In this document: in pieces, positions 12,005 to 62,508 of the stretch
Numbering within the stretch: the first letter of the stretch is position 1
Layout: each line of letters starts with the position of its first letter
Source of the DNA: a virus
Reading direction: 5' to 3' (one strand)
DNA length: 64,000 bases
Virus record (IMG/VR): IMGVR_UViG_3300031994_000034
Program-made: the position numbers and the translations under genes
The notes under the pieces: generated by a model
Told to the model about the DNA's origin: nothing
The model's database searches: none
Seen by the model: only the letters and a program-made list of their open reading frames with translations

Positions 12005-12193
12005 ATGACTATGCTGAAACCGCAAGACATAAGGATTGGCGACTACCTGCTGGCTGCCGATAAGGTAATAGACGGCGGGCGGTGCAGGGTTGACAACATC
12101 ATATTGAACTGGTTAATAAAAAGGAGTAATGATTATGGAACAACTGAAGATTTACGCTGCAACGCTGGAGGAATCGGCACAGCAGCAGATTGA
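12005..12193 (+). CDS. Possible small ORF (62 aa)
   Basis: Has the ATGACTATG start seen elsewhere in this module, but it overlaps the rtcB start by about 60 nt. Confidence 0.3.
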   Translation: MTMLKPQDIRIGDYLLAADKVIDGGRCRVDNIILNWLIKRSNDYGTTEDLRCNAGGIGTAAD

Positions 12194-13361
12194 TGACATG
12201 AGCAGGAGCGAGGCTTACAAGGACTGCACCATCCGCATCATGCCGGACTGCCATGCCGGGGCGGGCTGTACCATCGGCACGGTGATTGCCATCGGCGACC
12301 GCATCGTGCCAAACACCGTGGGCGTGGACATCGGCTGCGGTATGTTGGTGGTGCGGCTCGGCAAGGCCGATATTGACCTGCATCGGCTCGACAAGGTGGT
12401 GAATGAGAAGATACCCTCCGGCTTTAATATCCACGAGAAGCCTGTGCGAGAGATGGCGTTTCTCGACCGCTTCCATTGCCGCGAAGCCATCGACACCGAC
12501 ATGGCAAAGCGCAGCATCGGCTCGCTCGGAGGTGGCAACCACTTCATCGAGGTGGATGAGGGAAGTGACGGTGAGAAGTACCTGGTCATCCACTCCGGCA
12601 GTCGTAACCTCGGCAAGCGCGTCTGCGAATACTGGCAGCGCAGGGCTGAGGATTACTGCAAGCGGCTTGGCTACGACGAGCAGGAAATCATTGCACGGCT
12701 GAAAGTGGAAGGACGTCAGCAGGAAATCGCCGCTGCCATCAAGGAGGCTAAGAACAGTGCGCCGAAAGTCGGCAAGGACTTGGCTTTCATCGAGGGCGAG
12801 GATGCCGAAAAGTATCTCTACGACATGCAGCTGTGCCAGTTGTACGCCGACGAGAATCGTCGCGCTATGGCCCGAATTATCTGCGACGAAATGGGGTGGA
12901 TGCTTACGAGCATGAATAACTTTACCACCATCCATAACTACATCGACATCCGCCACCGCATCCTGCGCAAGGGTGCCGTGAGAGCTCTCAACGGTGAGCA
13001 ACTGATTATCCCCATGAACATGCGCGACGGCTCGCTGCTCTGCGAGGGAAAGGGAAACATCGACTGGCTCTACTCGGCTCCGCACGGTGCAGGTCGGTTG
13101 ATGTCGCGCAAGCAAGCCATCAGCAGTCTCTCGATGGATGAGTTTCGCCACGAGATGCAGAACGTATATAGCACGTCGGTATGTCCCGAAACCATCGACG
13201 AAAGTCCGATGGTCTATAAGCCCATGCAGGAAATTGTCAGCCAGATAGCCGACACAGTGAAAATCATCGACATCATCAAGCCCATCTACAACTTTAAGGC
13301 AAAGATACCAGAGAAACCCGACTGGAAAGCAAATAGGCATAAACTGAAGAAGGAGGAATGA
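12129..13361 (+). CDS. rtcB: RNA ligase RtcB
   Basis: MPDCHAGAGCTIGTV, GVDIGCGM, GGGNHFIE, HSGSRNLG and SAPHGAGR motifs; 410 aa. The start could be ATG 12135. Confidence 0.9.
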   Translation: MIMEQLKIYAATLEESAQQQIDDMSRSEAYKDCTIRIMPDCHAGAGCTIGTVIAIGDRIVPNTVGVDIGCGMLVVRLGKADIDLHRLDKVVNEKIPSGFNIHEKPVREMAFLDRFHCREAIDTDMAKRSIGSLGGGNHFIEVDEGSDGEKYLVIHSGSRNLGKRVCEYWQRRAEDYCKRLGYDEQEIIARLKVEGRQQEIAAAIKEAKNSAPKVGKDLAFIEGEDAEKYLYDMQLCQLYADENRRAMARIICDEMGWMLTSMNNFTTIHNYIDIRHRILRKGAVRALNGEQLIIPMNMRDGSLLCEGKGNIDWLYSAPHGAGRLMSRKQAISSLSMDEFRHEMQNVYSTSVCPETIDESPMVYKPMQEIVSQIADTVKIIDIIKPIYNFKAKIPEKPDWKANRHKLKKEE

Positions 13362-15837: not shown

Positions 15838-16623
15838 ATGGGACTGATAACAAAGAATGAGGCGGCAAGAATCCTCGGGCGTTCTGAGCGGGCCATCGAC
15901 GAATGGATAGCCCAAGGCGTACTGAAGACGCACTTGGTGAAGCAGACGAGATACATCGACGGCGACACGGTGGATGCGCTGAAGGACACGGAGGCCGACA
16001 TCACTCATGCGATGCAGGAGCGACAGAAGACGCTCGACGCAATAAAGGAGGAGACGTCGGCTCTCCGCCAGAGAGAGAACTTCAACAAATGGTCTGTCCG
16101 TGAGGCCGTCATGGCATTCGTTGCTGCGCTGGACGTGCTTAACGACGGGGAAAAGCAGGTGCTCGTCGGCGTAATGGAAGGATGTTCATACGAAAGCATA
16201 GGCGAGGATTTCTGCGTGACCCGCGAACGGGTGCGCCAGATATTCTACAAAGCCTTGCGGAGGGTGTCGGTCTCGATGGGGTCGTATCGCCGGATGCTGA
16301 ACGAGACGATAGAACTGCGCCGCCTGCGCGACGAGGTGAAGGAGAAGGACAGGGAGCTGCGACAGCTCCGTAAGATGCTGAACGTGCAGGAGCAGGATCG
16401 CGAAAAGTGTAAGTTAATGAGCACGGAACTTGTCGATATGGACCTGAGTGTGCGGACGATAAACTGTCTGAAGTCGGCTGATATATGCACCGTTGGCGAA
16501 TTGGTGCAATGTAAAAAGCTGGAGCTGCTGAAAATTCGCAACTTCGGAAAGAAGTCACTCAGTGAACTCGACGAACTCCTGGACCGGCTCGGCCTGGAAT
16601 GGGGCGCGAGAGCGGTGAACTGA
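15838..16623 (+). CDS. Transcription factor: HTH + sigma-70 region-4-like HTH + RpoA alpha-CTD-like domain
   Basis: [21 protein letters not shown]; [39 protein letters not shown]; [46 protein letters not shown]. Confidence 0.6.
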
Positions 16624-16662: not shown

Positions 16663-17316
16663 ATGCAACTGCAACTCGACACGATATATAACATGGACTG
16701 CTTGGAGGGGATGAAGATGATTCCCGACGGGAGCGTGGATGCGGTGATATGCGATTTGCCGTATGGGGTGCTGCATAAGAACAACCCGAATGCACAGTGG
16801 GACAGGATGATTCCCTTTGAGCCGCTGTGGGAGCAGTACAAGCGTGTCATCAAGGACAACGGGGCTATCTGTCTTTTCGGTCAGGGAATGTTCACGGCGC
16901 AACTGATGATGAGCCAGCCTAAGATGTGGCGGTACAATCTCATTTGGGACAAATGCCGTGCCACGGGTTTCCTCAATGCCAACCGTATGCCGTTGCGATG
17001 CCATGAGGACATTGCCGTGTTCTACAAGTCGTTGCCGACGTACAATCCGCAAATGACCATCGGAGAGCCGAGCCATCCGCAAGGGAACGGGGAACACAAG
17101 CAGACAAACAACTGCTATGGAAAGTACAAAAGCGGACGCACCTACGACTACGACAAGCAAATCCGAAAGGTGGAGCCAACACGACCAGGCGAGAAGTTTC
17201 CCATGAGTATCATTCGCATCAAGAAGGAGCATGAGACTACCGTGCTTCATCCCACACAAAAACCCGTAGAACTTATCCGCTACCTAATCCGTACCTACAC
17301 CGATTCGGGGGGGTAA
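16663..17316 (+). CDS. DNA N6A/N4C methyltransferase (beta-class), N-terminal part; truncated at the G7 tract
   Basis: DAVICDLPYGV (DPPY-like motif IV) and HPTQKPVELIRYLI. TAA 17314-17316 follows directly after G7. Confidence 0.8.
   Translation: MQLQLDTIYNMDCLEGMKMIPDGSVDAVICDLPYGVLHKNNPNAQWDRMIPFEPLWEQYKRVIKDNGAICLFGQGMFTAQLMMSQPKMWRYNLIWDKCRATGFLNANRMPLRCHEDIAVFYKSLPTYNPQMTIGEPSHPQGNGEHKQTNNCYGKYKSGRTYDYDKQIRKVEPTRPGEKFPMSIIRIKKEHETTVLHPTQKPVELIRYLIRTYTDSGG
17307..17313. repeat. G7 homopolymer interrupting the methyltransferase
   Basis: cgattcGGGGGGGtaattctc; counted from the sequence lines. Confidence 0.9.
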
Positions 17317-17465
17317 TTCTCGACAACTGCATAGGCAGTGGCACAACAGCCATCGCGTGTCTGAAGGAGCACCGGCACTTCATCGGCTTTGAACTAAACA
17401 AGGAATACTACGACAAAGCCGTGCAGCGTATCGAACGGGAACTGCAGCAGTTGACGCTCTTCTGA
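17313..17465 (+). CDS. C-terminal fragment of the same methyltransferase in the +1 frame
   Basis: Reads VILDNCIGSGTTAIACLKEHRHFIGFELNKEYYDKAVQRIE... (SAM-binding motif I). Stop at 17463-17465. Confidence 0.75.
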   Translation, partial: VILDNCIGSGTTAIACLKEHRHFIGFELNKEYYDKAVQRIERELQQLTLF

Positions 17466-26492: not shown

Positions 26493-26945
26493 CTACTCCC
26501 CTCCCTCTGGGGGAGGGGCTGGAGGGGAGGCTACTGGTGCCCGGTAGAACACCTTGCGGGTGTTGTCATACATGAGGTCTTTCCGCGTGCGGATGGGAGG
26601 ATCCTTGGGGTTATGCGTGAAGCTGCGGCGGGTGGGGTCGAAGGTATGGGTGAGGATTTCCTGGCGCATGTTCTTCGTGGGTGCGAACTTCAGGCGTTGT
26701 GTGGACGCGATGGTGCGGTCCTCGTTCCGTCCGCCGTAGGTGTAGTGGTAAGTGCGCTCGGGTATATCCACCACGGCAAAGGTGCCGAAACTCTCGATGG
26801 GCACACACCTGGCACCCTCGCTGAGCTGGTAGCGCAACTCGTCGAACACGGCGGGCAGCACCTGCTCCACCGTGGCCCTGGCGATGCCGCTCCGTTTCAC
26901 CACCTGACTGATGAAATGCTGTTTGTAGTCTTTGGGTCTAACCAT
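26493..26945 (-). CDS. HU/IHF-like DNA-binding protein
   Basis: ISQVVKRSGIARATVEQVLPAVFDELRYQL...IESFGTFAV. Confidence 0.6.
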   Translation of the reverse strand: MVRPKDYKQHFISQVVKRSGIARATVEQVLPAVFDELRYQLSEGARCVPIESFGTFAVVDIPERTYHYTYGGRNEDRTIASTQRLKFAPTKNMRQEILTHTFDPTRRSFTHNPKDPPIRTRKDLMYDNTRKVFYRAPVASPPAPPPEGGE

Positions 26946-27119: not shown

Positions 27120-27566
27120 TTAGAGTTCAACCACCATCCAGTCGTTAGCCAACATATCTTGCTGTGACGCGTTCCATCCGCTTTGAATGGTGTTCTGCGC
27201 GGTCTTCAGACAGATGCAGCCGCCGGCATAAATCTCTCCTCCATTGTTGTCGGCAATCGCTTTCAGCGCAGGGTCGTGACACCATTCGCTCTTAACCATC
27301 GCTTCAGGTTTTAGCCAAAGCCACATGCCCTTACCGTTCCAGCCCTCTCGTGCCACCTTGAAGCCACGCTTCAGCATGGCAATGGCCTGTCCGAAGGTGC
27401 CTGTCTCTCCCGCTGGCAGAAGATCTGCTTCCGTCGCTCCAAAGACATAGCATGTTTCCATGTCGCCGCGTGTGAACGTCGTGCCGTCCCATTCTGGATT
27501 GTTTACTCTTTTTGCTTCCTCTACTGCGCTGATGTACTTCTCAGCCATTTCGTCTTGATTTACCAT
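27120..27566 (-). CDS. DUF2829-like phage protein
   Basis: AMLKRGFKVAREGWNGKGMWL ... GWNASQQDMLANDWMVVE (family recalled by name from memory). Confidence 0.55.
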   Translation of the reverse strand: MVNQDEMAEKYISAVEEAKRVNNPEWDGTTFTRGDMETCYVFGATEADLLPAGETGTFGQAIAMLKRGFKVAREGWNGKGMWLWLKPEAMVKSEWCHDPALKAIADNNGGEIYAGGCICLKTAQNTIQSGWNASQQDMLANDWMVVEL

Positions 27567-30314: not shown

Positions 30315-30653
30315 TTAACTTTTCACCTCGTCCGCTTCTTGCCACCCCGTGTCGGGTACAAACCCGTCCTTCTCCTGGAGGTACATCACCCGTTGTGCGC
30401 CGAGCCAGTGCCAGCGGAAACCGTACTCCAGCAGCAGTCGTTCCGCCATCGGCCACGGGTCGCCCCAGTCGATTGTGGCCCGCAGTCCCATCGCGTCGCG
30501 CAGTTGTCCGGCATCCATCACCTCCACGCCGATGGCGAAGCCCGGCATGGGCATCCACCGCTCAATGAAACCCATCACCGCCGCCTTCGCGTTGTTCTCC
30601 ACCGCGTCGATGTCTGTCACCTTCTTCGGTTTCTCTTCGTCTTGTTCTGCCAT
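30315..30653 (-). CDS. Hypothetical protein (112 aa)
   Basis: ATG at 30653 (MAEQDEEK). The longer track ORF begins inside a word-repeat array. Confidence 0.5.
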   Translation of the reverse strand: MAEQDEEKPKKVTDIDAVENNAKAAVMGFIERWMPMPGFAIGVEVMDAGQLRDAMGLRATIDWGDPWPMAERLLLEYGFRWHWLGAQRVMYLQEKDGFVPDTGWQEADEVKS

Positions 30654-30710
30654 AGTTCCGATTGTTCTGATTATTCTGAATACTCGGAGTGCTCTGAGCA
30701 ATCTGATGAC

Positions 30711-31343
30711 TCACACCTCCCTGTACTCCTTCGTCGCATCGAAGCTCGGGCACGCCTTGTTGGCGAAGTCACGATGTCCGTGTATCTCTGCTCCAGGATA
30801 CATCCGTCTGAGGTCCAGCAGCAGCGAGAGCAACGCTGTCTTCTGCAGGTCGGTGCGCGTGTCCTTCGGTGTCTTGCCGTCGGTGGCCACGCCGCCCACA
30901 TACACCACGCCGATGCTGTTAGCGTTGTGCCCCGTGCAGTGCGCTCCGCTGATGTCCACGTCGCGCCCCTCGTGTACCGTGCCGTCGCGATACACCACAT
31001 AGTGATAGCCAATGTCGCTCCAGCCTTGCTGCTTGTGCCACTGGCGGATGTCCGCCACCGTATAATCGCGATACTCCGGCGTGGCCGTGCAATGCACGAT
31101 AATCTCCGTGATGCGTCGCTTCGACCGTTTCAGTCCCAACGCCACCTTTGCCATGCCCGGCAAGAGTTTCGCCAACGTAGCAGGACCCGCGATGCCATCG
31201 TCCTTCAGTCCGTGCTCACGCTGAAACTGCTTCACGGCCTCCGTCGTCAGCGGCCCCCAGATACCGTCGGGGTAAAGATTCAGCGCCCGCTGTATCTGCT
31301 TCACCACTTCTCCCCTACTCCCTTGCTTGTAAAGTGTTGCCAT
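30711..31343 (-). CDS. Endolysin: N-acetylmuramoyl-L-alanine amidase with N-terminal peptidoglycan-binding domain
   Basis: GSRGEVVKQIQRALNLYPDGIWGPLT...; IVHCTATP...GYHYVV...HCTGHNANSIGVVYVGG...HRDFANKACPSF. Confidence 0.85.
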   Translation of the reverse strand: MATLYKQGSRGEVVKQIQRALNLYPDGIWGPLTTEAVKQFQREHGLKDDGIAGPATLAKLLPGMAKVALGLKRSKRRITEIIVHCTATPEYRDYTVADIRQWHKQQGWSDIGYHYVVYRDGTVHEGRDVDISGAHCTGHNANSIGVVYVGGVATDGKTPKDTRTDLQKTALLSLLLDLRRMYPGAEIHGHRDFANKACPSFDATKEYREV

Positions 31344-31379
31344 ATCTTCTAAGTGAAAAATGAAAAAATCTAAGTTACC

Positions 31380-32015
31380 TCACATACCCCTCGCAGATAT
31401 CCACGATGTGTTCACAAAGTGGGGGGGGTAAGATGAGCGTAGTGTCCTGTCCTTGATGGCCTGCAGCCCTTGCTTCGTTCCCCTCGGTGCCCGCTCGTGG
31501 CAGGGGTCGCCGTTCTTGCAAGGCGGTCGGAACTGCGGGTCGGGGTGGTTCGTCCAGATGTCCGTTGCCTTGCGGTAGGTGAAACCGTACTGGCAGTAGG
31601 TTATCAGGTGGCGCGGCAAACCCCGCATGTAGTCCATCTTCCTCAGTCCGCCCATCGGGTTCTCGATGAACCAGAGGCGTGGCGCGAGCTCGCGGATGAG
31701 TTGCAGCGTGTGCTTGTTCACCTCGTCGGCTCGCCGTGCCTTCTCCGTCTTGGGCAGCAGCGTACCCGTCACAGGGTCTTTCGTCCGATGGAAGCCGATG
31801 GCGGCCACCGAGAACGTGGTGCAGTCGCATCCGGCCCAGATTACGTCGGGCTGTCCGAACCGCTCACGGATCATGTCGGCAGTCAGTTTCATGATGTCGC
31901 AGTGCAGCGACGACGGAAACCGCTCGTCCCAATCCACCGTGAAACACTCATGCCCCCGCTTTCGGAAAGCATCGCTCAGGCACTCCGTGCCGCTGAATAG
32001 TTCCAGTACCTTCAT
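31380..32015 (-). CDS. DNA (cytosine-5) methyltransferase candidate; C-terminus affected by a C8 tract
   Basis: KVLELFSGTE, GCDCTTFS, WFIENP, YCQYGFTYRKATDIW. ATG at 32015. Confidence 0.65.
   Translation of the reverse strand: MKVLELFSGTECLSDAFRKRGHECFTVDWDERFPSSLHCDIMKLTADMIRERFGQPDVIWAGCDCTTFSVAAIGFHRTKDPVTGTLLPKTEKARRADEVNKHTLQLIRELAPRLWFIENPMGGLRKMDYMRGLPRHLITYCQYGFTYRKATDIWTNHPDPQFRPPCKNGDPCHERAPRGTKQGLQAIKDRTLRSSYPPHFVNTSWISARGM
31421..31428. repeat. G8 (C8 on the coding strand) homopolymer near the 3' end of the C5-MTase gene
   Basis: aaagtGGGGGGGGtaagatg. Confidence 0.9.
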
Positions 32016-32063: not shown

Positions 32064-32654
32064 TTAAACCAATGCACCTCCGGCGCACCCTGCCATCCCT
32101 TCTCCCACACGAACCAGGCGTAGGCTGTGGCCGAACCGCCGGTGTTCTCGAAGTCGCCGTTCATGGCGCATTTCAGCCGTGCATGACTGACCCACACCCT
32201 TCGGGGGGGGGTAATTCTCAAACAGCCGTGCGCGACGCTTCCCTTCGAGGAACGTCAGTTTGAGGAACATCGCCACTTTCCTCCCCTCTGGGATGATTGC
32301 CAGCGCCTTTTCCACAAACTCCTGTGCGAAGGCATAGGGCGGGTTTGTCACGATATCGCCCTCCCAATGGGTGTTGTCGGGAGAGAGGAAGTCGGCTACC
32401 TCTCCAAAGCCTCGGTCGGCAAGGTCGCGACTTACCACCTCGTAGCCAGCCTCCATGAGTTGCTTGGAGATATGGCCCTCTCCGCACGACGGTTCGAGTA
32501 TCGGTCCACGGAACTGTTCTATCTTGCAGAGCCAGTCCGTTGCTGCCGGTTCCGTGGCGTAGTAGTCCTTGTCTGCCCGCTCGTGATCGCAGTGGTTACT
32601 CGCCCCAATGGTTTTGAAGGTCGATGCGCTGCCGCCTTTCCAGTCTCGTGCCAT
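32064..32654 (-). CDS. DNA N6-adenine methyltransferase, frameshifted at a C9 tract
   Basis: ILEPSCGEGHI (motif I) and IVTNPPYAF (motif IV). After the tract the listed frame looks non-native, while the -1 frame reads ...SATAYAWFVWEKGWQGAPEVHWFN* (stop 32060-32062). Confidence 0.8.
   Translation of the reverse strand: MARDWKGGSASTFKTIGASNHCDHERADKDYYATEPAATDWLCKIEQFRGPILEPSCGEGHISKQLMEAGYEVVSRDLADRGFGEVADFLSPDNTHWEGDIVTNPPYAFAQEFVEKALAIIPEGRKVAMFLKLTFLEGKRRARLFENYPPPKGVGQSCTAEMRHERRLREHRRFGHSLRLVRVGEGMAGCAGGALV
32203..32211. repeat. G9 (C9 on the coding strand) homopolymer inside the N6-MTase gene
   Basis: cccttcGGGGGGGGGtaattctc. It shares the G-run + TAATTCTC flank with 17307-17321. Confidence 0.9.
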
Positions 32655-32666
32655 AGGCTTTTAAAG

Positions 32667-32870
32667 TCACATTTTAATCAATTCCTGCACATGTCTCGGT
32701 ATCGGTTTCTCTCTGCCTATGTCGATAGTCACTCGGTTGCTCCACTTCTCGCAGTGCATCCGTGCGTTCACCTTCATGTCAGGCACCAGTCCGCAAATGT
32801 TCACCCCTCTGCCGTCGGCATAGAGTTTTAAAATCCTCCGTGTGCAATTCATACAATTCCTTGGTGTCAT
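32667..32870 (-). CDS. Small Cys-containing hypothetical protein (67 aa)
   Basis: ATG 32870 (MTPRNCMNCTRR). The longer track ORF starts inside a nonamer array. Confidence 0.45.
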   Translation of the reverse strand: MTPRNCMNCTRRILKLYADGRGVNICGLVPDMKVNARMHCEKWSNRVTIDIGREKPIPRHVQELIKM

Positions 32871-32905
32871 AGTCCTTTCTCTGATTATTCCGAGTATTCG
32901 ATTAC

Positions 32906-33463: not shown

Positions 33464-34678
33464 TTATGAATTGATTTCCACTCCGAAGTGTGCCGCTGCT
33501 ACCACCACCTTCTCATCCTTCAGCGCAGCTTCCAGCGGTTCCAGCGTCAGGTACTCCTTCCAGTTCACCTTCCATTGCTCAATGCGTTTCTCCCTGGCCT
33601 TCCCCTCTTTTCCTCGCCGCAAGTCGATGAGCCACTTCCGCAGCTCCCGGCGTCTCGCCTTTTGCTCCGAGGTCAGTTCAGTTGGATTACTCTGACTACT
33701 CTGATTACTCTGAGTATTCCGATCACTCTGGCCACCCTCCACGACATAAGCGTTGCCGAGAGCATCGACGCCCACGCGCCCGTCGCGGACCAGCTTCTCC
33801 CACTCCGCATCCAGTTCCAGGTAAATCCCCTTCAGCGTCGCGTCAATCCTCGTCGCCTTCCGCGCCCACGCAGCCCGTGCATCCGGCTTCGCGTTCACGT
33901 CCTCCATCAGCAGGCGCATCTTCTCCCGCGCCTCGTCCAACTCCCTCAGCAGTCCTCTGACAGCCCCTGCCCGCTCCTGCGTCCCCTTCGGCAGCAAGTA
34001 TGCGTACTGGTCAATGTGCTTTGGACGGGCAGGAATAAGCGTGCCCTGCGGTTTCCCAGTAGGGAGGGGAGCAGATACCGCTGCTGGTAGTGTGCCCTGC
34101 GATTCTGTCGCAGGGTTCCCTTGCGTCTTTCCTTGCGCCTGCAGTGCGCCCGTCGGTTTTCCCGTAGGGAGGGGAGTATTCGCCTTTGCCTGCAGTGCGC
34201 CCGTCGGTTCTTGCTTAGGCAAGCGTCCCTTTGGGCCGAGTACCGTCGCAGCCCTCTCGGTTTTCTGATTACTCTGATTATTCCGAGTATTCGGCCCGAC
34301 CTTCCCCGCTGCGCCAGCACCATTGTGAATTGTGAATTGTAAATTGTGAATTGCCGAAAGCTCTTCCGTGAGCTTTCGGACCGCTCTCCATGCACTCTTT
34401 ACCCACAACCGGCTCGGCAGCCACGTCTCCGTCACTGCCATCAATGCCGTCATCAGCACCGCCCCCTCGTGCGCCGCCTCGCAGTCCTCTTTCTCCCACC
34501 TTCCGCTCATCGTCATCAGATTCTGCGCCCGAGCCATCGGCCTATCCGTCAGCGCAAGCAGCCGCTCCCCAGCCGTGCGCAACCACTCCCCCACCCTCTT
34601 GCGGTACGCCTTGCGCTCCTGCGCCGTCATATCCCCGTAGGGTTTCAGGTATTCACCCGTCGTTATCTTCTTAATCAT
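33464..34678 (-). CDS. Hypothetical protein (404 aa) with low-complexity centre and word-repeat inserts
   Basis: Complete ORF. Internal PLPTGKP(T/Q)G(A/T)L repeats. Nonamer and heptamer arrays are read in frame. Confidence 0.6.
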   Translation of the reverse strand: MIKKITTGEYLKPYGDMTAQERKAYRKRVGEWLRTAGERLLALTDRPMARAQNLMTMSGRWEKEDCEAAHEGAVLMTALMAVTETWLPSRLWVKSAWRAVRKLTEELSAIHNLQFTIHNGAGAAGKVGPNTRNNQSNQKTERAATVLGPKGRLPKQEPTGALQAKANTPLPTGKPTGALQAQGKTQGNPATESQGTLPAAVSAPLPTGKPQGTLIPARPKHIDQYAYLLPKGTQERAGAVRGLLRELDEAREKMRLLMEDVNAKPDARAAWARKATRIDATLKGIYLELDAEWEKLVRDGRVGVDALGNAYVVEGGQSDRNTQSNQSSQSNPTELTSEQKARRRELRKWLIDLRRGKEGKAREKRIEQWKVNWKEYLTLEPLEAALKDEKVVVAAAHFGVEINS

Positions 34679-36024: not shown

Positions 36025-36387
36025 TCACCTTTCGTCCCCGCTCCCGTCAATCACTCCCCTCTTCTTCCTGTCTGCCAACTTCGCCAGGTTCTCCTCCGCC
36101 ACATCCTCCAGCGACCAGCCCATCACGCGGCACAGTCCACTGAGCTGCCACAGCACATCACCCGCCTCGCGCCGCAGCTCCGCGATTTCCTCGTCCGTCA
36201 TCACATGACGGCTCTCCGTCAGCAGGCTGTTACGGTCAATCGACGCCTCCTCGTGTCTGATACTCTTCGCCACCTTTCCCGCAAACTCGCCCACCTCGCC
36301 CACGAGGTTCAGCATCATGTAAGAGAAGTTCCGGCACGACGGCATACACGTTCCCATCGCCCGCTGTTGATACTCGTTCAGTTCCAT
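36025..36387 (-). CDS. MazG-like nucleotide pyrophosphohydrolase
   Basis: LVGEVGEFAGKV ... EAGDVLWQLSGL ... NLAKLADRKKRGVIDGSGDER. ATG 36387 lies just downstream of promoter P4. Confidence 0.75.
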   Translation of the reverse strand: MELNEYQQRAMGTCMPSCRNFSYMMLNLVGEVGEFAGKVAKSIRHEEASIDRNSLLTESRHVMTDEEIAELRREAGDVLWQLSGLCRVMGWSLEDVAEENLAKLADRKKRGVIDGSGDER

Positions 36388-52697: not shown

Positions 52698-52709
52698 ACT
52701 CTATCATGT

Positions 52710-52768
52710 CACACAGATTACACAGATCACACGGATTTCTTTCTGTGTTATCTGTGCTATCTGTGTGA
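52710..52768 (+). repeat. Inverted nonamer-word hairpin (CACAGATNA x3 / loop / TNATCTGTG x3)
   Basis: cacacagattacacagatcacacggatttctttctgtgttatctgtgctatctgtgtg. Confidence 0.75.
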
Positions 52769-52806
52769 ACTTATCCCAAAAACTCAATCATTCAAAATTC
52801 AAAATT

Positions 52807-53007: not shown

Positions 53008-53013
53008 TTTATC

Positions 53014-53072
53014 TCACACGGATTCCACGGATGACACGGATTTCTTTCTGTGCTATCTGTGTTATCTGTGTG
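53014..53072 (+). repeat. Inverted nonamer-word hairpin with G-U wobbles
   Basis: cacacggattccacggatgacacgga / tttcttt / ctgtgctatctgtgttatctgtgtg. Confidence 0.75.
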
Positions 53073-53093
53073 AACTAAAACTCAAAAAAAACT

Positions 53094-53279
53094 ATGGCAA
53101 AGAAACTATCATGGGACGAAGCACTGCAAAGGTTGCTTCGTGGCGAAAGTGTGAACGCCGCCCGCATCAGTGAGGGTGGCGTCTGCTATCTGCGCCACCA
53201 GGCATGGGCGCACGGCTATCGCCTGGAGGACAGTGGCATCTTTGAGTACAGAACCTATTCATTCACTAAAGCGGCATGA
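53094..53279 (+). CDS. Hypothetical protein (61 aa)
   Basis: aactATGGCAAAG start context. Confidence 0.55.
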   Translation: MAKKLSWDEALQRLLRGESVNAARISEGGVCYLRHQAWAHGYRLEDSGIFEYRTYSFTKAA

Positions 53280-54033: not shown

Positions 54034-54107
54034 CACACGGATTCTTTTTCTGTGCTATCTGTGCTATCTGTGCGACAAAAACATCAACCTATCAAAATTC
54101 AAAAGTT

Positions 54108-55770: not shown

Positions 55771-55883
55771 GGTAGTGGATGCTGTGCTATCGGCATGACG
55801 GGCTTTTTCAATTCACAATTCATAATTCACAATTCATAATACACAATTCATAATTCATAATTCATAATTAAAACTCAATCACT

Positions 55884-56933
55884 ATGGCAAGAACAACCGA
55901 TTATCTCACCTTCATGGTGGATGTGACCCCATACGAGCATGAGGGGAACAACTATAATGCACTGAACATCATCGTGGCCTATCGCAAGGGGCAGGGTTTC
56001 GTTATCTGCTGGCAACCCGTGCGGAAGACGGACATGGGTTATATCACTGGTCCTATGCCGAGCCGCGACCCACTCGTGGGCGGCAAGGGATTCGTGGCAA
56101 AGGAGGCATCGCGCAACAACGCGAAGATACTGGAGATGATGAAGGCGGCCCTATTGCTTGGAGCTGAGGGCATCAAGTTCTTCTTCGACCAGCGCAACTA
56201 CGACCGCCTGAAGGAGTTTATGTGCGACGTATGCAACTACGGCTATACGGCTGACGTCGAGAAGCAACTGCAAGAGACTATCAACAACAACTCAACCGAT
56301 AACAACTCAAAATCATCTACAACTATGGCAAAGAAGAACATGGCCCAGAATGAGAGTGCTAACGTGCAGAACGCACAAGTGAACAACCAGGCAGACGAGC
56401 AGCCCAAACAGGTGACGCAGAAGAAGAAAGCTATTGCCGAGCAGCAGCCTGCCAAATTCTCTGTTGTCCCCTATACCAACAAGCAGGGCGAGACGGGTTA
56501 CTTTCTCTTCGGCTTTGCCTCACAGGAGGAAGCAAAGGGCCTGGCCGACCGCATGGCCAAGAGCGTCCGCGAAGGCTTCCGCTATGAGGACCATACCCGC
56601 TATGACGTGGTAGGCTTCCCGCCCCGCTATGCTCAGATGGCACAGCAGATGTGCGATGCACTGAATGCTGGCGATGCAGCTGCCGTGGCGAAGATTGCAG
56701 CCAGCACCTTCGATGTCTATGCCGCTGCCGTGGCCGACGGCAAGGCTGAGAGCGACCGCAAGCGTGCCGAGCGCAAGGAGGCCGAGGCAAAGGCAAAGGC
56801 TAAGGAGGTAGCCAAGGTGAAGAAGTCCGCAGGTCTCTATTCCAAGGAGGACGTAGCCGCTATGATGCAGACACTATTGAATGGTGGCGACGTTCCGGAG
56901 GACATCAAGGCGTTGCTGGCCAAGGTGGCGTGA
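55884..56933 (+). CDS. Hypothetical protein (349 aa)
   Basis: cactATGGCAAGA start after the TTCATAA heptamer array. Confidence 0.65.
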   Translation: MARTTDYLTFMVDVTPYEHEGNNYNALNIIVAYRKGQGFVICWQPVRKTDMGYITGPMPSRDPLVGGKGFVAKEASRNNAKILEMMKAALLLGAEGIKFFFDQRNYDRLKEFMCDVCNYGYTADVEKQLQETINNNSTDNNSKSSTTMAKKNMAQNESANVQNAQVNNQADEQPKQVTQKKKAIAEQQPAKFSVVPYTNKQGETGYFLFGFASQEEAKGLADRMAKSVREGFRYEDHTRYDVVGFPPRYAQMAQQMCDALNAGDAAAVAKIAASTFDVYAAAVADGKAESDRKRAERKEAEAKAKAKEVAKVKKSAGLYSKEDVAAMMQTLLNGGDVPEDIKALLAKVA

Positions 56934-57061
56934 GTGACTTTTTCAATGCACAGTTCATAATGCATAATTCATAATTAAATCAGTCTCGCAGAAATCGCGG
57001 ATATACGCAGAAACATTTCCTCTATTTCCGCTATTTCTGCGGGACATAAACGAAACGAACT

Positions 57062-57237: not shown

Positions 57238-58830
57238 ATGGACAAGATATTATCAATGTTTTTCGAGGCAGGGCGGTGGGAATACGCCATTGCCAAGGGT
57301 GTGGGTAAGGACGTTCCGAAGAACGTGTTGTACCAACTATGCAAGCCAGAAGTGCGGATGCAGATGTACGAGGCTATCCGCACGGGACAGTACGAGATTG
57401 CACCGCCACATACGGCACTTATCCCGAAGGATACGCCAGGCGAGTTCCGCACGGTGTATGTGAACGAGGCAGCTGACCGTGTGCTGCTATCCATTGCCAA
57501 CGACCTGCTGTTTGAGTTGATGCCAGACAGGGTGCATCCGCGTTGCAAGTCGTACTTGAAAGGTGTTGGTTGTGGGAGGATAGTGCAGGAAGTCAGTACG
57601 GCCATCCTTGCGGCAAAACCGCAAGGTACAGAGAAATTGGGCTGGAAGAGCGACCTGAGTAAGTATTTCGACTCGGTACCTATCCGATTCATAGATGCTG
57701 CCTTCGACATGGTAGAGGAACGGCACGGACATTCGGCCCTGATCGATGTACTGCGAAAGTATTACCATGCCGACCTCTATTTCACTCCCGATGGGGTGCT
57801 GGAAAGCAAGTACCAAAGTCTGAAGCAGGGTTGCTCGGTGGCATCGTGGCTGGCCGACGTCTTACTCTATCACATCGACGAGCGACTGACTAAGTTGAAC
57901 GGCTATTACGTCCGCTATTCGGACGATATGCTCTTTATCGGGCCGGATGCAGAGCAGGCTATGCAGGTCCTCACGGAGGAACTGGCAGCTATGGAAATGC
58001 GGCTCAACCCTAAGAAGGTGGAGTGGCTGGACGAGCGGCACTGGTTTAAGTTCCTGGGCTTCTCTATCCGTGGCAAGGACATCAGTCTGAGCAGTACGAG
58101 AATCAAGACGTTTCAGAGGGAGATTGAGAACAGGACAGTGAAAAGTGGAAAATCTAAGTTCACAATCACTTCGGCTCTCAACTCCGTGAACCGCTATCTG
58201 TATCGTGGCGACGGACAGGGGCATTCGTGGGCAACGCAAGTGCTGCCTATCGTGAACGTAAGACAGGACATCGCCACGCTGAACCTGTTCGTGATGGACT
58301 GTCTGCGGGCTGCCTGTACGGGCAAGACGAAAGTGGGCGGTCTGGGCTATGACAAGCAGGGTAGGGACGGCTGCATCGTCCGTGGCAGGGGCAGGAATGT
58401 GAGTGCCAACCGCAGGAAGACGGGCGACGACATCGGCGGCTATCTGTCGCTGAGCTGTATGCAGAACGCGATGCGGACGAGCAAGGCGGCGTATGACTCG
58501 CTGGTGCGCTCACTCAACTTCTCGCAGAAAACGCAGAAAGCGCAGAAATCTGATGCTACGAGCATCGAGGAACTGGAGGCGGCGTATGCGGTGTATAAGC
58601 ACTCCATTCCGAGCGAAAGGACGATGGGGCGTGTGCCTCGCTTCTATGCGCTGCCCGAAAGCGAGTTGAGCAATGACGATATGCTCTATGGCGTTCCCCG
58701 TGAACAGGCGGAGCGCGAATTGGAGAAGGTGCTGGCAGGGTTCACGATGCCTGAAGGGGCAGGGTGGTTCTGGCAGAGCGAGAACGACAAGGACTTGGTG
58801 GTGCTGCGCTCATGGTGCAGTGCCGCATAG
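57238..58830 (+). CDS. Reverse transcriptase (530 aa), stand-alone, with ~200-aa C-terminal extension
   Basis: IPKDTPGEFRTVYV, ADRVLLSIAN, GWKSDLSKYFDSVP, SLKQGCSVASWLADVLL, YYVRYSDDMLFIG, RLNPKKVEW, WFKFLGFSI. Confidence 0.9.
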   Translation: MDKILSMFFEAGRWEYAIAKGVGKDVPKNVLYQLCKPEVRMQMYEAIRTGQYEIAPPHTALIPKDTPGEFRTVYVNEAADRVLLSIANDLLFELMPDRVHPRCKSYLKGVGCGRIVQEVSTAILAAKPQGTEKLGWKSDLSKYFDSVPIRFIDAAFDMVEERHGHSALIDVLRKYYHADLYFTPDGVLESKYQSLKQGCSVASWLADVLLYHIDERLTKLNGYYVRYSDDMLFIGPDAEQAMQVLTEELAAMEMRLNPKKVEWLDERHWFKFLGFSIRGKDISLSSTRIKTFQREIENRTVKSGKSKFTITSALNSVNRYLYRGDGQGHSWATQVLPIVNVRQDIATLNLFVMDCLRAACTGKTKVGGLGYDKQGRDGCIVRGRGRNVSANRRKTGDDIGGYLSLSCMQNAMRTSKAAYDSLVRSLNFSQKTQKAQKSDATSIEELEAAYAVYKHSIPSERTMGRVPRFYALPESELSNDDMLYGVPREQAERELEKVLAGFTMPEGAGWFWQSENDKDLVVLRSWCSAA

Positions 58831-61151: not shown

Positions 61152-61496
61152 ATGAAAATTAAATCATCTATCGGAAAGAATGTGAACGAGGCGGTGAAAA
61201 ACTGCCGTGAGGTATTGGCAAACGAAACCGTGAACCTGCTGAAGCAGATGCGTGTAGAGCCAGGGCAGGAGGTGCTGTTCAAGAGGGCGCTGTTCCTCTA
61301 TCAGCACAAGGGAATGACCACTGAGACCATTGTCTGCGACCGCATCGCCTACTTCGGACGTGAGGGCAGCGAACCCTATTACATCGTCAGCATGGGCAAG
61401 GACGAGTACGTATCGCCAAAGAGCAATCTTTTTCTCTCGACAGACAGTCTGCAGGGTATCTACGAAGAGGTACGCCGCGTGGTGAGGGAAGAATAA
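61152..61496 (+). CDS. Hypothetical protein (114 aa)
   Basis: Complete ORF. Confidence 0.6.
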   Translation: MKIKSSIGKNVNEAVKNCREVLANETVNLLKQMRVEPGQEVLFKRALFLYQHKGMTTETIVCDRIAYFGREGSEPYYIVSMGKDEYVSPKSNLFLSTDSLQGIYEEVRRVVREE

Positions 61497-61553
61497 TCTG
61501 TGGTATCTGTGCTATCTGTGTGAGAATGTCGCACGGAAATCACAGAAATCACG
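61496..61553 (+). repeat. Nonamer-word array (ATCTGTGNT x3 then CACGGAAAT/CACAGAAAT)
   Basis: Read directly from the sequence. Confidence 0.7.
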
Positions 61554-61587: not shown

Positions 61588-62073
61588 ATGATGGAAGATT
61601 TATTCACACGGAAACAGATGGAGAACGCGGTGATGCTGGCCGCTGACCTCTATCAGGGAATGTATTACAGCCCTGCAACCGACGGCGGTGCGCTGGAAGT
61701 GGCAGGTGCTATCATTGACGAAGCCGTGAAGATGGAGGCGTGGATGACGGAGAAATATGGTAAGGACGACGACCAGTATCTCGACCACCTGGATGAGTAC
61801 GAGACTCTATTGAAAAAGAAGTATGGCCTGCAGAAGAACGAGGTGACGGTTATCTTCGGGGAGAATGCGGCACAGGCCTATATGAACGACGGCGTGGACG
61901 GGCTGTGCGAGTTTATCGACGAAGGTCAGCTGGTGCGAATGACGTTCGACACGTTGGCCGAGCGGAGGGCGTATATCAGTGGCATAGACGATGCCGACGG
62001 CTGGTTGGGCAGCGCTGTGCTGGAAGACAGTGATGCCGAGAGCGAGAGAGTGAAGGCTTTATTGGACAATTAA
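61588..62073 (+). CDS. Hypothetical protein (161 aa)
   Basis: acgaactATGATGG start context. Confidence 0.65.
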   Translation: MMEDLFTRKQMENAVMLAADLYQGMYYSPATDGGALEVAGAIIDEAVKMEAWMTEKYGKDDDQYLDHLDEYETLLKKKYGLQKNEVTVIFGENAAQAYMNDGVDGLCEFIDEGQLVRMTFDTLAERRAYISGIDDADGWLGSAVLEDSDAESERVKALLDN

Positions 62074-62087
62074 AACAAGAAACGACT

Positions 62088-62447
62088 ATGACTGTATTGG
62101 AACAAAGATTCATGGAGCGGGTGCCAAACCTGCTGGGCGACATCGCAGAGTCGCCGGAAACTATCGCCAAGGCCAAGCAGCCGAAACAGAAAGTATGGGT
62201 GTTAACCTATGTCGGGCTGAGTGACAGCGACTATGAAGCCAACGGCTATAGTGAGTGCCATGTGTGCGGCACGTTGGAAGCAGCCAAGGAGAAAATGCGT
62301 CAGCTGCGCGACGCGGAGATTGAGAACTGCAAGGTCGAAGGGCGCGACTATGAGATTCTGGAAGACGAGACAACGGAACTGCGCATGTCGTGGTGCTGCC
62401 ACGGCGAGCAGGTGCGACTGGAAATCCACGAAGAGGAAGTGAAATAA
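62088..62447 (+). CDS. Hypothetical protein (119 aa)
   Basis: acgactATGACT start context. Confidence 0.65.
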   Translation: MTVLEQRFMERVPNLLGDIAESPETIAKAKQPKQKVWVLTYVGLSDSDYEANGYSECHVCGTLEAAKEKMRQLRDAEIENCKVEGRDYEILEDETTELRMSWCCHGEQVRLEIHEEEVK

Positions 62448-62508
62448 TCTGTGCTATCTGTGCTATCTGTGTGAGAAAATAACCACGGATGGCACGGATG
62501 TCACGGAA
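62447..62508 (+). repeat. Inverted nonamer-word hairpin (24 paired positions, 5 of them G-U)
   Basis: atctgtgctatctgtgctatctgtg / tgagaaaataac / cacggatggcacggatgtcacgga. Confidence 0.75.

Follow-up and report, generated by a model that had tools for sequence, protein, structure and literature searches.

Three off-by-one G/C tracts in an uncultured phage as probable on/off switches of its DNA methyltransferases

Introduction

Why should the long G/C runs of a stretch of phage DNA all lie in DNA methyltransferase (MTase) genes, and why should each of these genes be out of frame by a single base? The question is raised by a 64,000-nucleotide stretch of viral DNA (IMG/VR record IMGVR_UViG_3300031994_000034; "the window" below means this whole stretch), which contains exactly three G/C runs of at least 7, at 17307-17313 (G7), 31421-31428 (G8) and 32203-32211 (G9), each of them inside an MTase gene (here MTase A, C and B, respectively). 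An earlier annotation made from the letters of the window alone (the sequence-only reading) had claimed that such runs occur only in its three MTase genes, and so they do. We argue that the three runs are probably hypermutable homopolymer contingency loci, which switch the orphan MTases of this phage on and off.

Homopolymer switching of MTases is classical in bacteria, as exemplified by the mod genes of Haemophilus, Neisseria and Helicobacter. Phage-borne MTases are a main escape from restriction and are usually treated as fixed traits; they protect phage DNA from classical restriction, and they may expose it to methylation-dependent defences.

Results

Three methyltransferase genes, each one base out of frame

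The three genes and their tracts are the following (AdoMet, S-adenosylmethionine).

16663-17465, + strand: MTase A, whole gene, a PF01555 N6/N4 DNA methylase
16663..17316, + strand: 5' part of MTase A, a gene called at these coordinates in the source contig, with the catalytic motif DLPY
17307..17313, + strand: G7 run of MTase A, off for lack of one base, in frame as G8
17313..17465, + strand: 3' part of MTase A in the working frame, VILDNCIGSGTTAIA...QQLTLF and a stop, with the AdoMet-binding motif I (by translation; within the PF01555 match)
31375..32015, - strand: MTase C, a small C5-cytosine-like MTase (phrog_757; by profile match and family consensus)
31421..31428, - strand: C8 run of MTase C, off for lack of one base, in frame as C9
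32060..32654, - strand: MTase B, a 197-residue NPPY methyltransferase (phrog_799; no Pfam model)
32203..32211, - strand: C9 run of MTase B (G9 on the + strand; minus-strand gene 32064-32654), off by one surplus base, in frame as C8

Mononucleotide runs of about 7 or more thus lie within open reading frames (ORFs) at G7, C8 and C9, and a change of one base in either direction toggles between a full-length and a truncated product. All three genes are presently off by one (G7 needs G8, C8 needs C9 and C9 needs C8), no lesion besides the tract is present in any of them, and after one-base repair all three proteins match MTase profiles from end to end, across the junctions (PF01555; phrog_67, phrog_757 and phrog_799).

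In the G7 state MTase A runs into a TAA stop at 17314-17316 (GGG GGG TAA), giving a 217-residue product that is on record exactly. The G8 repair reads S-G-G-V-I-L-D-N-C-I-G-S-G-T-T and matches positions 1-220 of the 221 of PF01555 (114.8 bits for a cut-off of 26.7; E 7e-33), with E 2e-77 for phrog_67; together with this match, DLPY followed by an AdoMet motif I of the FxGxG type (VILDNCIGSGTT) makes it a PF01555 methylase of the beta class. A relative (L123) has G8, in frame, at the same site. The closest protein relatives of MTase A in GenBank phages are less than 60% identical. In the protein look-up, the exact repaired forms of MTases A and C were not on record.

MTase B, a member of a PHROG family (799) of more than 4,000 proteins, carries an AdoMet-binding ILEPSCGEG and a catalytic TNPPY and matches phrog_799 ("DNA methyltransferase") with E 4e-64; no match was found in Pfam, NCBIfam or PDB sequences. 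With C9 it reads TNPPY...RARLFENYPPPKGVGQSCTAEMRHERRLREH and yields a 196-residue product with a 46-residue out-of-frame tail; with C8 it ends in ENYPPRRVWVSHARLKCAMNGDFENTGGSATAYAWFVWEKGWQGAPEVHWFN and a stop. The claim that the C9 run frameshifts a real MTase gene, restored by removal of one C, is borne out by intact C8 alleles in relatives. As for the accompanying label "N6-adenine", the MTase motifs are indeed present, and the target base, read from NPPY, and DNA as the substrate are putative; NPPY favours N6-adenine only as a rule of thumb.

MTase C matches phrog_757 ("DNA methyltransferase") with E 3e-36; its match to PF00145 (18.2 bits, residues 1-88 only) stays below the 22-bit cut-off and that to TIGR00675 is weak, and it has the motifs GCDCTTFS and FIENP in place of PCQ and ENV. 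In the present C8 state the product has 211 residues and ends in SSYPPHFVNTSWISARGM, the out-of-frame end reading YPPHFVNTSWISARGM up to its stop. The C9 frame, which reads YPPPLCEHIVDICEGYVR and ends in SSYPPPLCEHIVDICEGYVR with a stop at 31375, is the correct one because it matches the family consensus RSx(I/Y)PxxLCEHIVDICE.

Working alleles and selection on the working frame

The working lengths are found in relatives from other samples. Three loci of about 92% nucleotide identity (L288, L290 and L289) have C8 in MTase B and C9 in MTase C, and their products are 97-98% identical to the repaired proteins, post-tract parts included: 191-193 of the 197 residues for MTase B and, for the intact MTase C proteins of L288 and L290, 208 of 213. 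ERZ27280348, which has C8 with a GAGAATTA flank, even encodes the exact repaired MTase B protein (100% identical), and its gene differs from that of the window at 20 synonymous and 0 non-synonymous positions. Relative to L288, synonymous and non-synonymous differences stand at 29:6 in MTase B and 21:5 in MTase C (7:1 and 4:0 after the tracts). Given this synonymous excess, which includes the post-tract part, the working frame was translated or under selection over the greater part of the divergence, which makes the off states recent. As judged from these substitution counts, purifying selection on the working frame is shown for MTases B and C.

The off lengths of the window, C9 included, recur in the assemblies of SRR9006654 and SRR9006655 and in one ENA assembly; the agreement between the two SRR assemblies makes the lengths reproducible. 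A contig break in the Logan assemblies was considered as a marker of the C9 tract and discarded: it lies about 40-60 nucleotides away, and the tract is assembled as C9 in both runs.

Tract length varies among related phages

The loci compared were sampled around MTase genes (gut and rumen phages, L001-L282 and L294-L431, versus L432-L517), and statements on "these phages" cover those neighbourhoods. Among relatives, tract length varies at all three sites. For MTase A, the cluster at 90% identity includes products of the n-1 (216/217 residues), n (266-270), n+1 (246) and n+3 (267, with an extra Gly) states. At the MTase B site, C8 in frame is found in L043, L046, L047, L049, L288-L290, L352 and L518, C7 in L121 and C11 in L085, and the 196-residue +1 product, with the same junk tail, is present on 13 contigs of its 90%-identity cluster. 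The MTase C tract is C9 in L288 and L290 and C7 in L203, and its 90%-identity cluster comprises products of 201, 211, 213, 218 and 223 residues. Since the tracts lie on conserved Gly-Gly or Pro-Pro codons, changes of three bases are tolerated. The Pro-Pro pair is universal in the MTase B family, distant bacterial homologues of which use CCG CCA and the like; in IMG/VR the family has in-frame C8 in two codon contexts (TAC CCC CCC CGN and ACC CCC CCC ATT) and many interrupted versions.

A degenerate scan for runs directly before V-I-L-D-x-x-x-G-x-G found G7 to G16 at 81 sites in 43 lineages, in PF01555-type genes. Of the 69 such genes with at least G7 before VILD whose upstream ORF is long, 42 keep the frame, 16 are one G over (+1) and 11 one G under (-1), which puts 39% out of frame. 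Tracts vary between near-identical genomes much faster than other sites: L024 and L027 have G8 and G9 within 3000 identical flanking bp, and L304 and L306, with G8 and G7, otherwise differ at 2 of 2921 bp. In two contigs the same MTase locus appears at either end with different tracts, G8 and G9 in IMGVR_UViG_3300033463_003635 (L298/L346), G10 and G16 in IMGVR_UViG_3300028591_000483 (L305/L331). Such two-ended loci are the assembler output expected from a circular genome with mixed tract lengths, which suggests, at the level of contigs, mixtures within a sample. Overall, 30 of the 40 long-run clusters with several members are polymorphic in length. Tract length thus differs between samples and, as far as assembled contigs can tell, apparently within samples.

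In related phages, length-variable runs were also found in neighbouring DNA-modification genes, including a second site of the MTase B family (G-G-Y), a PP-loop FSGGKDS gene (PAPS-reductase-like), a mid-gene site of PF01555 genes and a gene starting M..VNYPP. Examples of these further variable G/C runs in related loci are at the following positions:

L027 1484, L040 8723, L314 8432
L021 1305, L306 7991
L009 758, L022 6490
L014 5734, L022 2853

These counts bear on the possibility that the true tracts are in frame and that assembly of short metagenome reads miscalled the homopolymers by one base. Errors are indeed common in G/C homopolymers of 8-10, all of the evidence comes from consensus contigs, and two IMG/VR contigs break inside tracts. 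Such errors would nevertheless have to produce the same lengths in three assemblies from at least two runs while leaving unaffected the A/T runs of 7-8 of the window, which lie within or between intact ORFs; they would have to give both +1 and -1 states, at a total of 39% that is far above consensus error rates, and to repeat distinct off products on many contigs, as with the 196-residue product. They would also leave unexplained the enrichment of long runs in MTase genes and the flank signature described below. We regard this explanation as very improbable.

A second possibility is non-adaptive decay, the runs being mutational hot spots and the genes three young pseudogenes without selected switching. 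All three MTases are off in the window, 39% of the related genes are off, and orphan MTases are often dispensable, as this account would have it. Against this, many lineages keep their tracts though one synonymous change would stabilise them, and some relatives have made exactly such changes (CCA/CCT or GGT interruptions); long runs, far from being purged, are in excess; the working frame, its post-tract part included, is under strong purifying selection (20:0, 29:6 and 21:5); and the tract is the sole lesion of each gene. Decay is in our view unlikely, and contingency switching remains the preferred reading.

Long runs are enriched and are not a product of codon usage

In the window, G7 words are as frequent as expected by chance (6 seen, 6.9 expected), but G6+ runs outside the three tracts are depleted (4 runs versus 26.7 +/- 6.5 matching words expected), the spectrum of G runs falling from 1029 (G3) through 231 (G4), 33 (G5) and 4 (G6) to one each of G7, G8 and G9. 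GGG makes up 15-18% of Gly codons and CCC 19-28% of Pro codons. Since these are minority codons and G6+ is depleted elsewhere in the window, the long tracts are not the result of codon preference. In about 2 Mb of related phage loci the run spectrum is bimodal (85 clusters of G6, 103 of at least G7), whereas it is geometric in unrelated environmental phage loci (83 versus 16). By these counts of assembled sequence, long runs are shown to be enriched in these MTase-bearing loci.

A shared flank and a 3' signature of long G runs

Two of the three tracts have the same flank.

17314..17321, + strand: TAATTCTC, directly 3' of G7; in the G7 state it begins with the stop codon, and in the G8 state (G)TA ATT CTC is V-I-L
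32212..32219, - strand: TAATTCTC on the + strand; the minus strand reads GAG AAT TA(C), E-N-Y, just before the Pro-Pro codons

On the + strand TAATTCTC therefore follows the G7 run in sense (G-G-V-I-L) and the G9 run in antisense to E-N-Y; the 15-mer of G run plus TAATTCTC, which the sequence-only reading had noticed in two MTases of opposite coding sense, is present as it was described. An identical 8-mer after two of three runs has a probability of about 1e-4 on uniform odds, and of about 1e-3 when the flank bias of long runs is allowed for. TAA follows all three runs directly on the + strand, with a baseline of 0.8% of the G3-G6 runs of the window (about 5e-7 for three of three).

At the MTase A site the flank codes for V-I-L within the AdoMet-binding motif (GGVILDxxxGSGTT); of 18 synonymous variants it is the most frequent (22 of the 81 sites), and run-less homologues write these residues with other codons. 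The flank of the MTase B site is kept in the nearest relatives only (GAGAATTA in L288-L290 and L518, CAGAATTA in L352), more distant homologues having GAAAATTA, GAGAAATA, AAAAATTA, GACGCTTA or TCTA. A search of related genomes for G(n)TAATTCTC, which had been put forward as a check, returned 42 exact matches to G7TAATTCTC in IMG/VR: 23 are in MTase genes, in the motif-I context, one (L004) is like the MTase B site, and the rest are scattered.

The two genes might have in G(n)TAATTCTC a functional DNA element in common, for instance a small mobile cassette or a site of binding or nicking. Apart from the 8-mer identity on uniform odds, this would fit the TAA after all three runs of the window and a 3' signature that long runs have in common, in Gly-coding and a few assigned Pro-coding clusters. 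But both flanks code for residues of run-less homologues (V-I-L-D and Y/T-P-P), and therefore nothing has been inserted; the MTase B flank drifts in homologues through the usual synonymous and non-synonymous changes, the signature does not extend past +6, which leaves the last bases uninformative, and a context like that of the MTase B site recurs in only 1 of the 42 exact matches. We consider such an element improbable. From their coding contexts, the two copies of TAATTCTC are best read as unrelated coding sequences rather than a common element, the last three bases agreeing by chance.

The bias at the start of the flank is a different matter. After removal of the VILD sites and of all pattern-selected sites, and after clustering of homologous sites, TA follows runs of at least G7 in 43-44% of 103-133 clusters, against 9% for G5 (Fisher p = 1e-16 to 1e-20, for site clusters that are not fully independent phylogenetically), and Y-A follows in 60% versus 20%. 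The position weights read G(n)-[T/C]-A-A-T-T-[T/C] and reach background by +7, the 5' side being close to background; this strand-specific signature, G(n)-Y-A-A-W-T, is absent from G5 and G6 runs. By coding sense, which was called first by ORF length (unreliable) and then by a codon-usage score and is approximate, the TA excess is 34% versus 7% for Gly-coding runs (50 clusters) and 70% versus 10% for Pro-coding runs (only 10 clusters). Under the empirical weights TAATTCTC has a probability of about 6e-4 at a long run, about 40x the uniform value, so the 8-mer identity is a modest coincidence on top of a real, unexplained bias. The argument that the flank goes beyond protein homology thus survives for its start, where the signature is strand-specific and shared by Gly and a few Pro runs, and fails for the flank as one shared element.

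Two readings of the signature were set aside. An immediate stop codon, G(n)TAA, suits the Gly-coding VILD sites alone and fails at runs that are GG-Y or Pro-coding; the -7 promoter box of Bacteroidota, TAnnTTTG, fits a single site family, with +7 and +8 at background. As a separate observation, by the codon-usage sense calls, long runs stand as G (Gly codons) on the coding strand in 50 clusters and as C in 10 (5x), where G5 gives 217 and 119 (1.8).

Possible recoding at the tracts

Programmed recoding, by ribosomal frameshifting or transcriptional slippage on the run, would turn the "off" states into "low" ones. Sites of -1 programmed frameshifting are X XXY YYZ heptamers, for instance in dnaX or at the G/GT site of phage tail chaperones, and there is a clear resemblance: n-1 runs form perfect slippery heptamers, and the -1 product is the working protein. 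In the G7 state, G GGG GGG UAA is such a heptamer with a stop, and a -1 slip would make the G8 protein; C CCC CCC in MTase C is likewise a slippery heptamer in the zero frame, while the C9 of MTase B needs a +1 slip on CCC C. Furthermore, 36 of the 43 lineages use GTA for the Val that follows the run (background 23%, p = 6e-17), as do only 8 of 86 run-less GGVILD sites; this near-universal GTA means that the n-1 state nearly always reads GGG TAA.

Unlike known -1 sites, however, the tracts show neither a conserved out-of-frame arrangement, 61% of the relatives being in frame and the lengths variable, nor a stimulatory structure: no stable downstream fold is predicted at the three sites (z = 0.0, 0.3 and -0.7). 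The TA flank is also found where no stop is possible, in the Pro-coding and GG-Y runs. Recoding in place of a DNA switch is therefore improbable, and it may at most add a leak on top of it.

Source phage and neighbouring genes

The window is 100% identical to part of a 177,591-bp ENA contig (ERZ27256871 k141_16910), its base 1 corresponding to about base 61,901; this 177.6-kb source contig is phage-like. The nearest homologues come from rumen assemblies of Bacteroidaceae, Prevotellaceae and Prevotella, among them a 90-kb contig from the isolate Prevotella sp. MGM1, which indicates a Prevotella-type host. The evidence points to a large, uncultured, Prevotellaceae-associated phage. GenBank phages gave no close match to the locus. 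In a PHROG search of the largest ORFs of the window, 10 had no match, and a Pfam match was obtained only for the reverse transcriptase; with most large ORFs unmatched in PHROG or Pfam, we leave the phage unclassified. Its lineage is poorly charted. Neither tRNA genes nor Rfam families were found in the whole window, and a motif scan of it for (D/N/S)PP(Y/F/W) gave no gene beyond those already found.

The other assigned features are the following.

12135-13361, + strand: RtcB RNA ligase
15838-16623, + strand: protein combining sigma-70 region 4 with the C-terminal domain of RNA polymerase alpha, immediately upstream of MTase A
26493-26945, - strand: HU-type DNA-binding protein, adjoining the MTase B/C pair
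27120-27566, - strand: Tad2-like protein (PF11195, a family linked to anti-Thoeris counter-defence), adjoining the MTase B/C pair
30711-31343, - strand: endolysin (Amidase_2 and PG_binding_1), adjoining the MTase B/C pair
36025-36387, - strand: MazG pyrophosphatase
57238-58830, + strand: reverse transcriptase, 530 residues, with a full-length match to RT_UG27 (a defence-associated class; E 1.5e-208) and an RTas346-type C-terminal domain
52706-52782, 53011-53094, 54047-54087, 61495-61544, 62446-62486; 55792-55868, 56927-56975; about 30640-30705, 32870-32905, 33680-33740: short periodic arrays, intergenic

The reverse transcriptase shows no sign of belonging to a diversity-generating retroelement: a search within 50-64 kb gave no pair of template and variable repeats, and its class is UG27. 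The intergenic arrays repeat short units: (TATCTGTGY)n, accompanied by inverted CACAGAT, and (AATTCAY)n; similar 9-nucleotide arrays resembling GAATACTCGGAATAATCAGAG stand upstream of genes on the minus strand. A role of the arrays as regulatory or terminator elements of the phage is possible.

Discussion

On the proposed scheme, slipped-strand mispairing in DNA replication would add or remove one G:C pair, so that the 3' part of the gene would move in or out of frame and the MTase would be switched on or off in a heritable and reversible manner. The majority genotype here has all three MTases off (G7, C8 and C9, for working lengths of G8, C9 and C8), and up to eight on/off combinations per population would hedge across hosts that attack unmethylated or methylated DNA. 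Replication slippage, its reversibility, the switching rate and the selective benefit are what we infer from the tracts and their variation.

Several points weigh against this scheme. The bet-hedging benefit is argued by analogy with bacterial phase-variable MTases and with agt of coliphage T2, and relaxed selection in this lineage would account equally well for three genes in the off state. No curated family matches MTase B or C, and the activity and targets of the MTases are predictions. The polymorphism between contigs is that of metagenome consensus sequences, in which homopolymer miscalls are possible, and the three identical assemblies may share data or derive from one population. Finally, the strand-specific flank signature is not predicted by simple slippage.

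This last point leaves room for a more tentative proposal, which we think possible though doubtful: the long G runs and their shared flank may reflect a DNA-level determinant and not only passive slippage hot spots. The sequence context might adjust the rate of switching on one nascent strand, or some factor might make the tracts or recognise them; either candidate would act on a set of DNA-modification genes (three MTase families, the PP-loop enzyme and others). If true, these phages would have a tunable, combinatorial methylome lottery.

The tracts share with bacterial phase-variable MTases an in-frame homopolymer, on/off states set by one base, length polymorphism between near-identical genomes and several loci per genome. 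A Type IIG enzyme of Campylobacter jejuni, for instance, is reported to be phase-variable through poly-G (PMC4889913). Unlike bacterial phasevarions, the switches proposed here are phage-borne and concern orphan MTases without a restriction partner nearby; their likely benefit would be escape from host defence rather than gene regulation; and the tract lies at a conserved fold motif (before motif I, or at Pro-Pro) and not in a 5' repeat region.

Among phages, the closest parallel is agt of T2, in which frameshifts of one base in an A run arise and revert about 1000-fold faster than a point mutant, and of which the modified state protects against McrA/BC and sensitises to TgvAB (Gomez, Barrick and Waters, bioRxiv 10.1101/2025.10.21.683753). 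Here, too, a mononucleotide run lies in a DNA-modification gene of a phage, with the same proposed logic; the T2 case concerns A runs and a glucosyltransferase and is experimental, whereas ours concerns G/C runs of 7-9 in three methyltransferases and is drawn from sequence. Methyltransferases are absent from the analysis in that preprint. In Campylobacter Fletchervirus phages, hypermutable G7-G11 runs within genes create subpopulations (Sorensen et al. 2021, Cell Rep 35:109214); they are reported to affect receptor-binding proteins and host range, unlike the DNA modification considered here. Bordetella phage BPP-1, which also encodes a reverse transcriptase, is reported to have a methylase gene with a poly-G tract as well (Liu et al. 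2004, J Bacteriol 186:1503); the T2 preprint mentions it in passing, as a single gene. Phage contingency loci are shown experimentally only in the 2025 preprint, for A runs of T2 and T4. In the literature we found no description of multiple tract-bearing MTases in gut or rumen phages, of the motif-I hot spot or of the flank signature. The mechanism itself is thus known, and it is barely described for phage MTases.

If phage MTases switch by slippage, one phage genotype would be a cloud of methylation states. There would be three switches in the present genome, and the same hot spot recurs across many uncultured phage lineages of the Prevotella/Bacteroidaceae type, with about 40% out of frame. 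If true, this would change the reading of host range, of defence and counter-defence and of virome "pseudogenes", tract-bearing MTase genes being now split or truncated by gene callers. The flank rule G(n)TAAT offers a testable handle on the determinant of the switching rate, and phage contingency loci would extend from the A runs of coliphages to the dominant phages of the gut and rumen.

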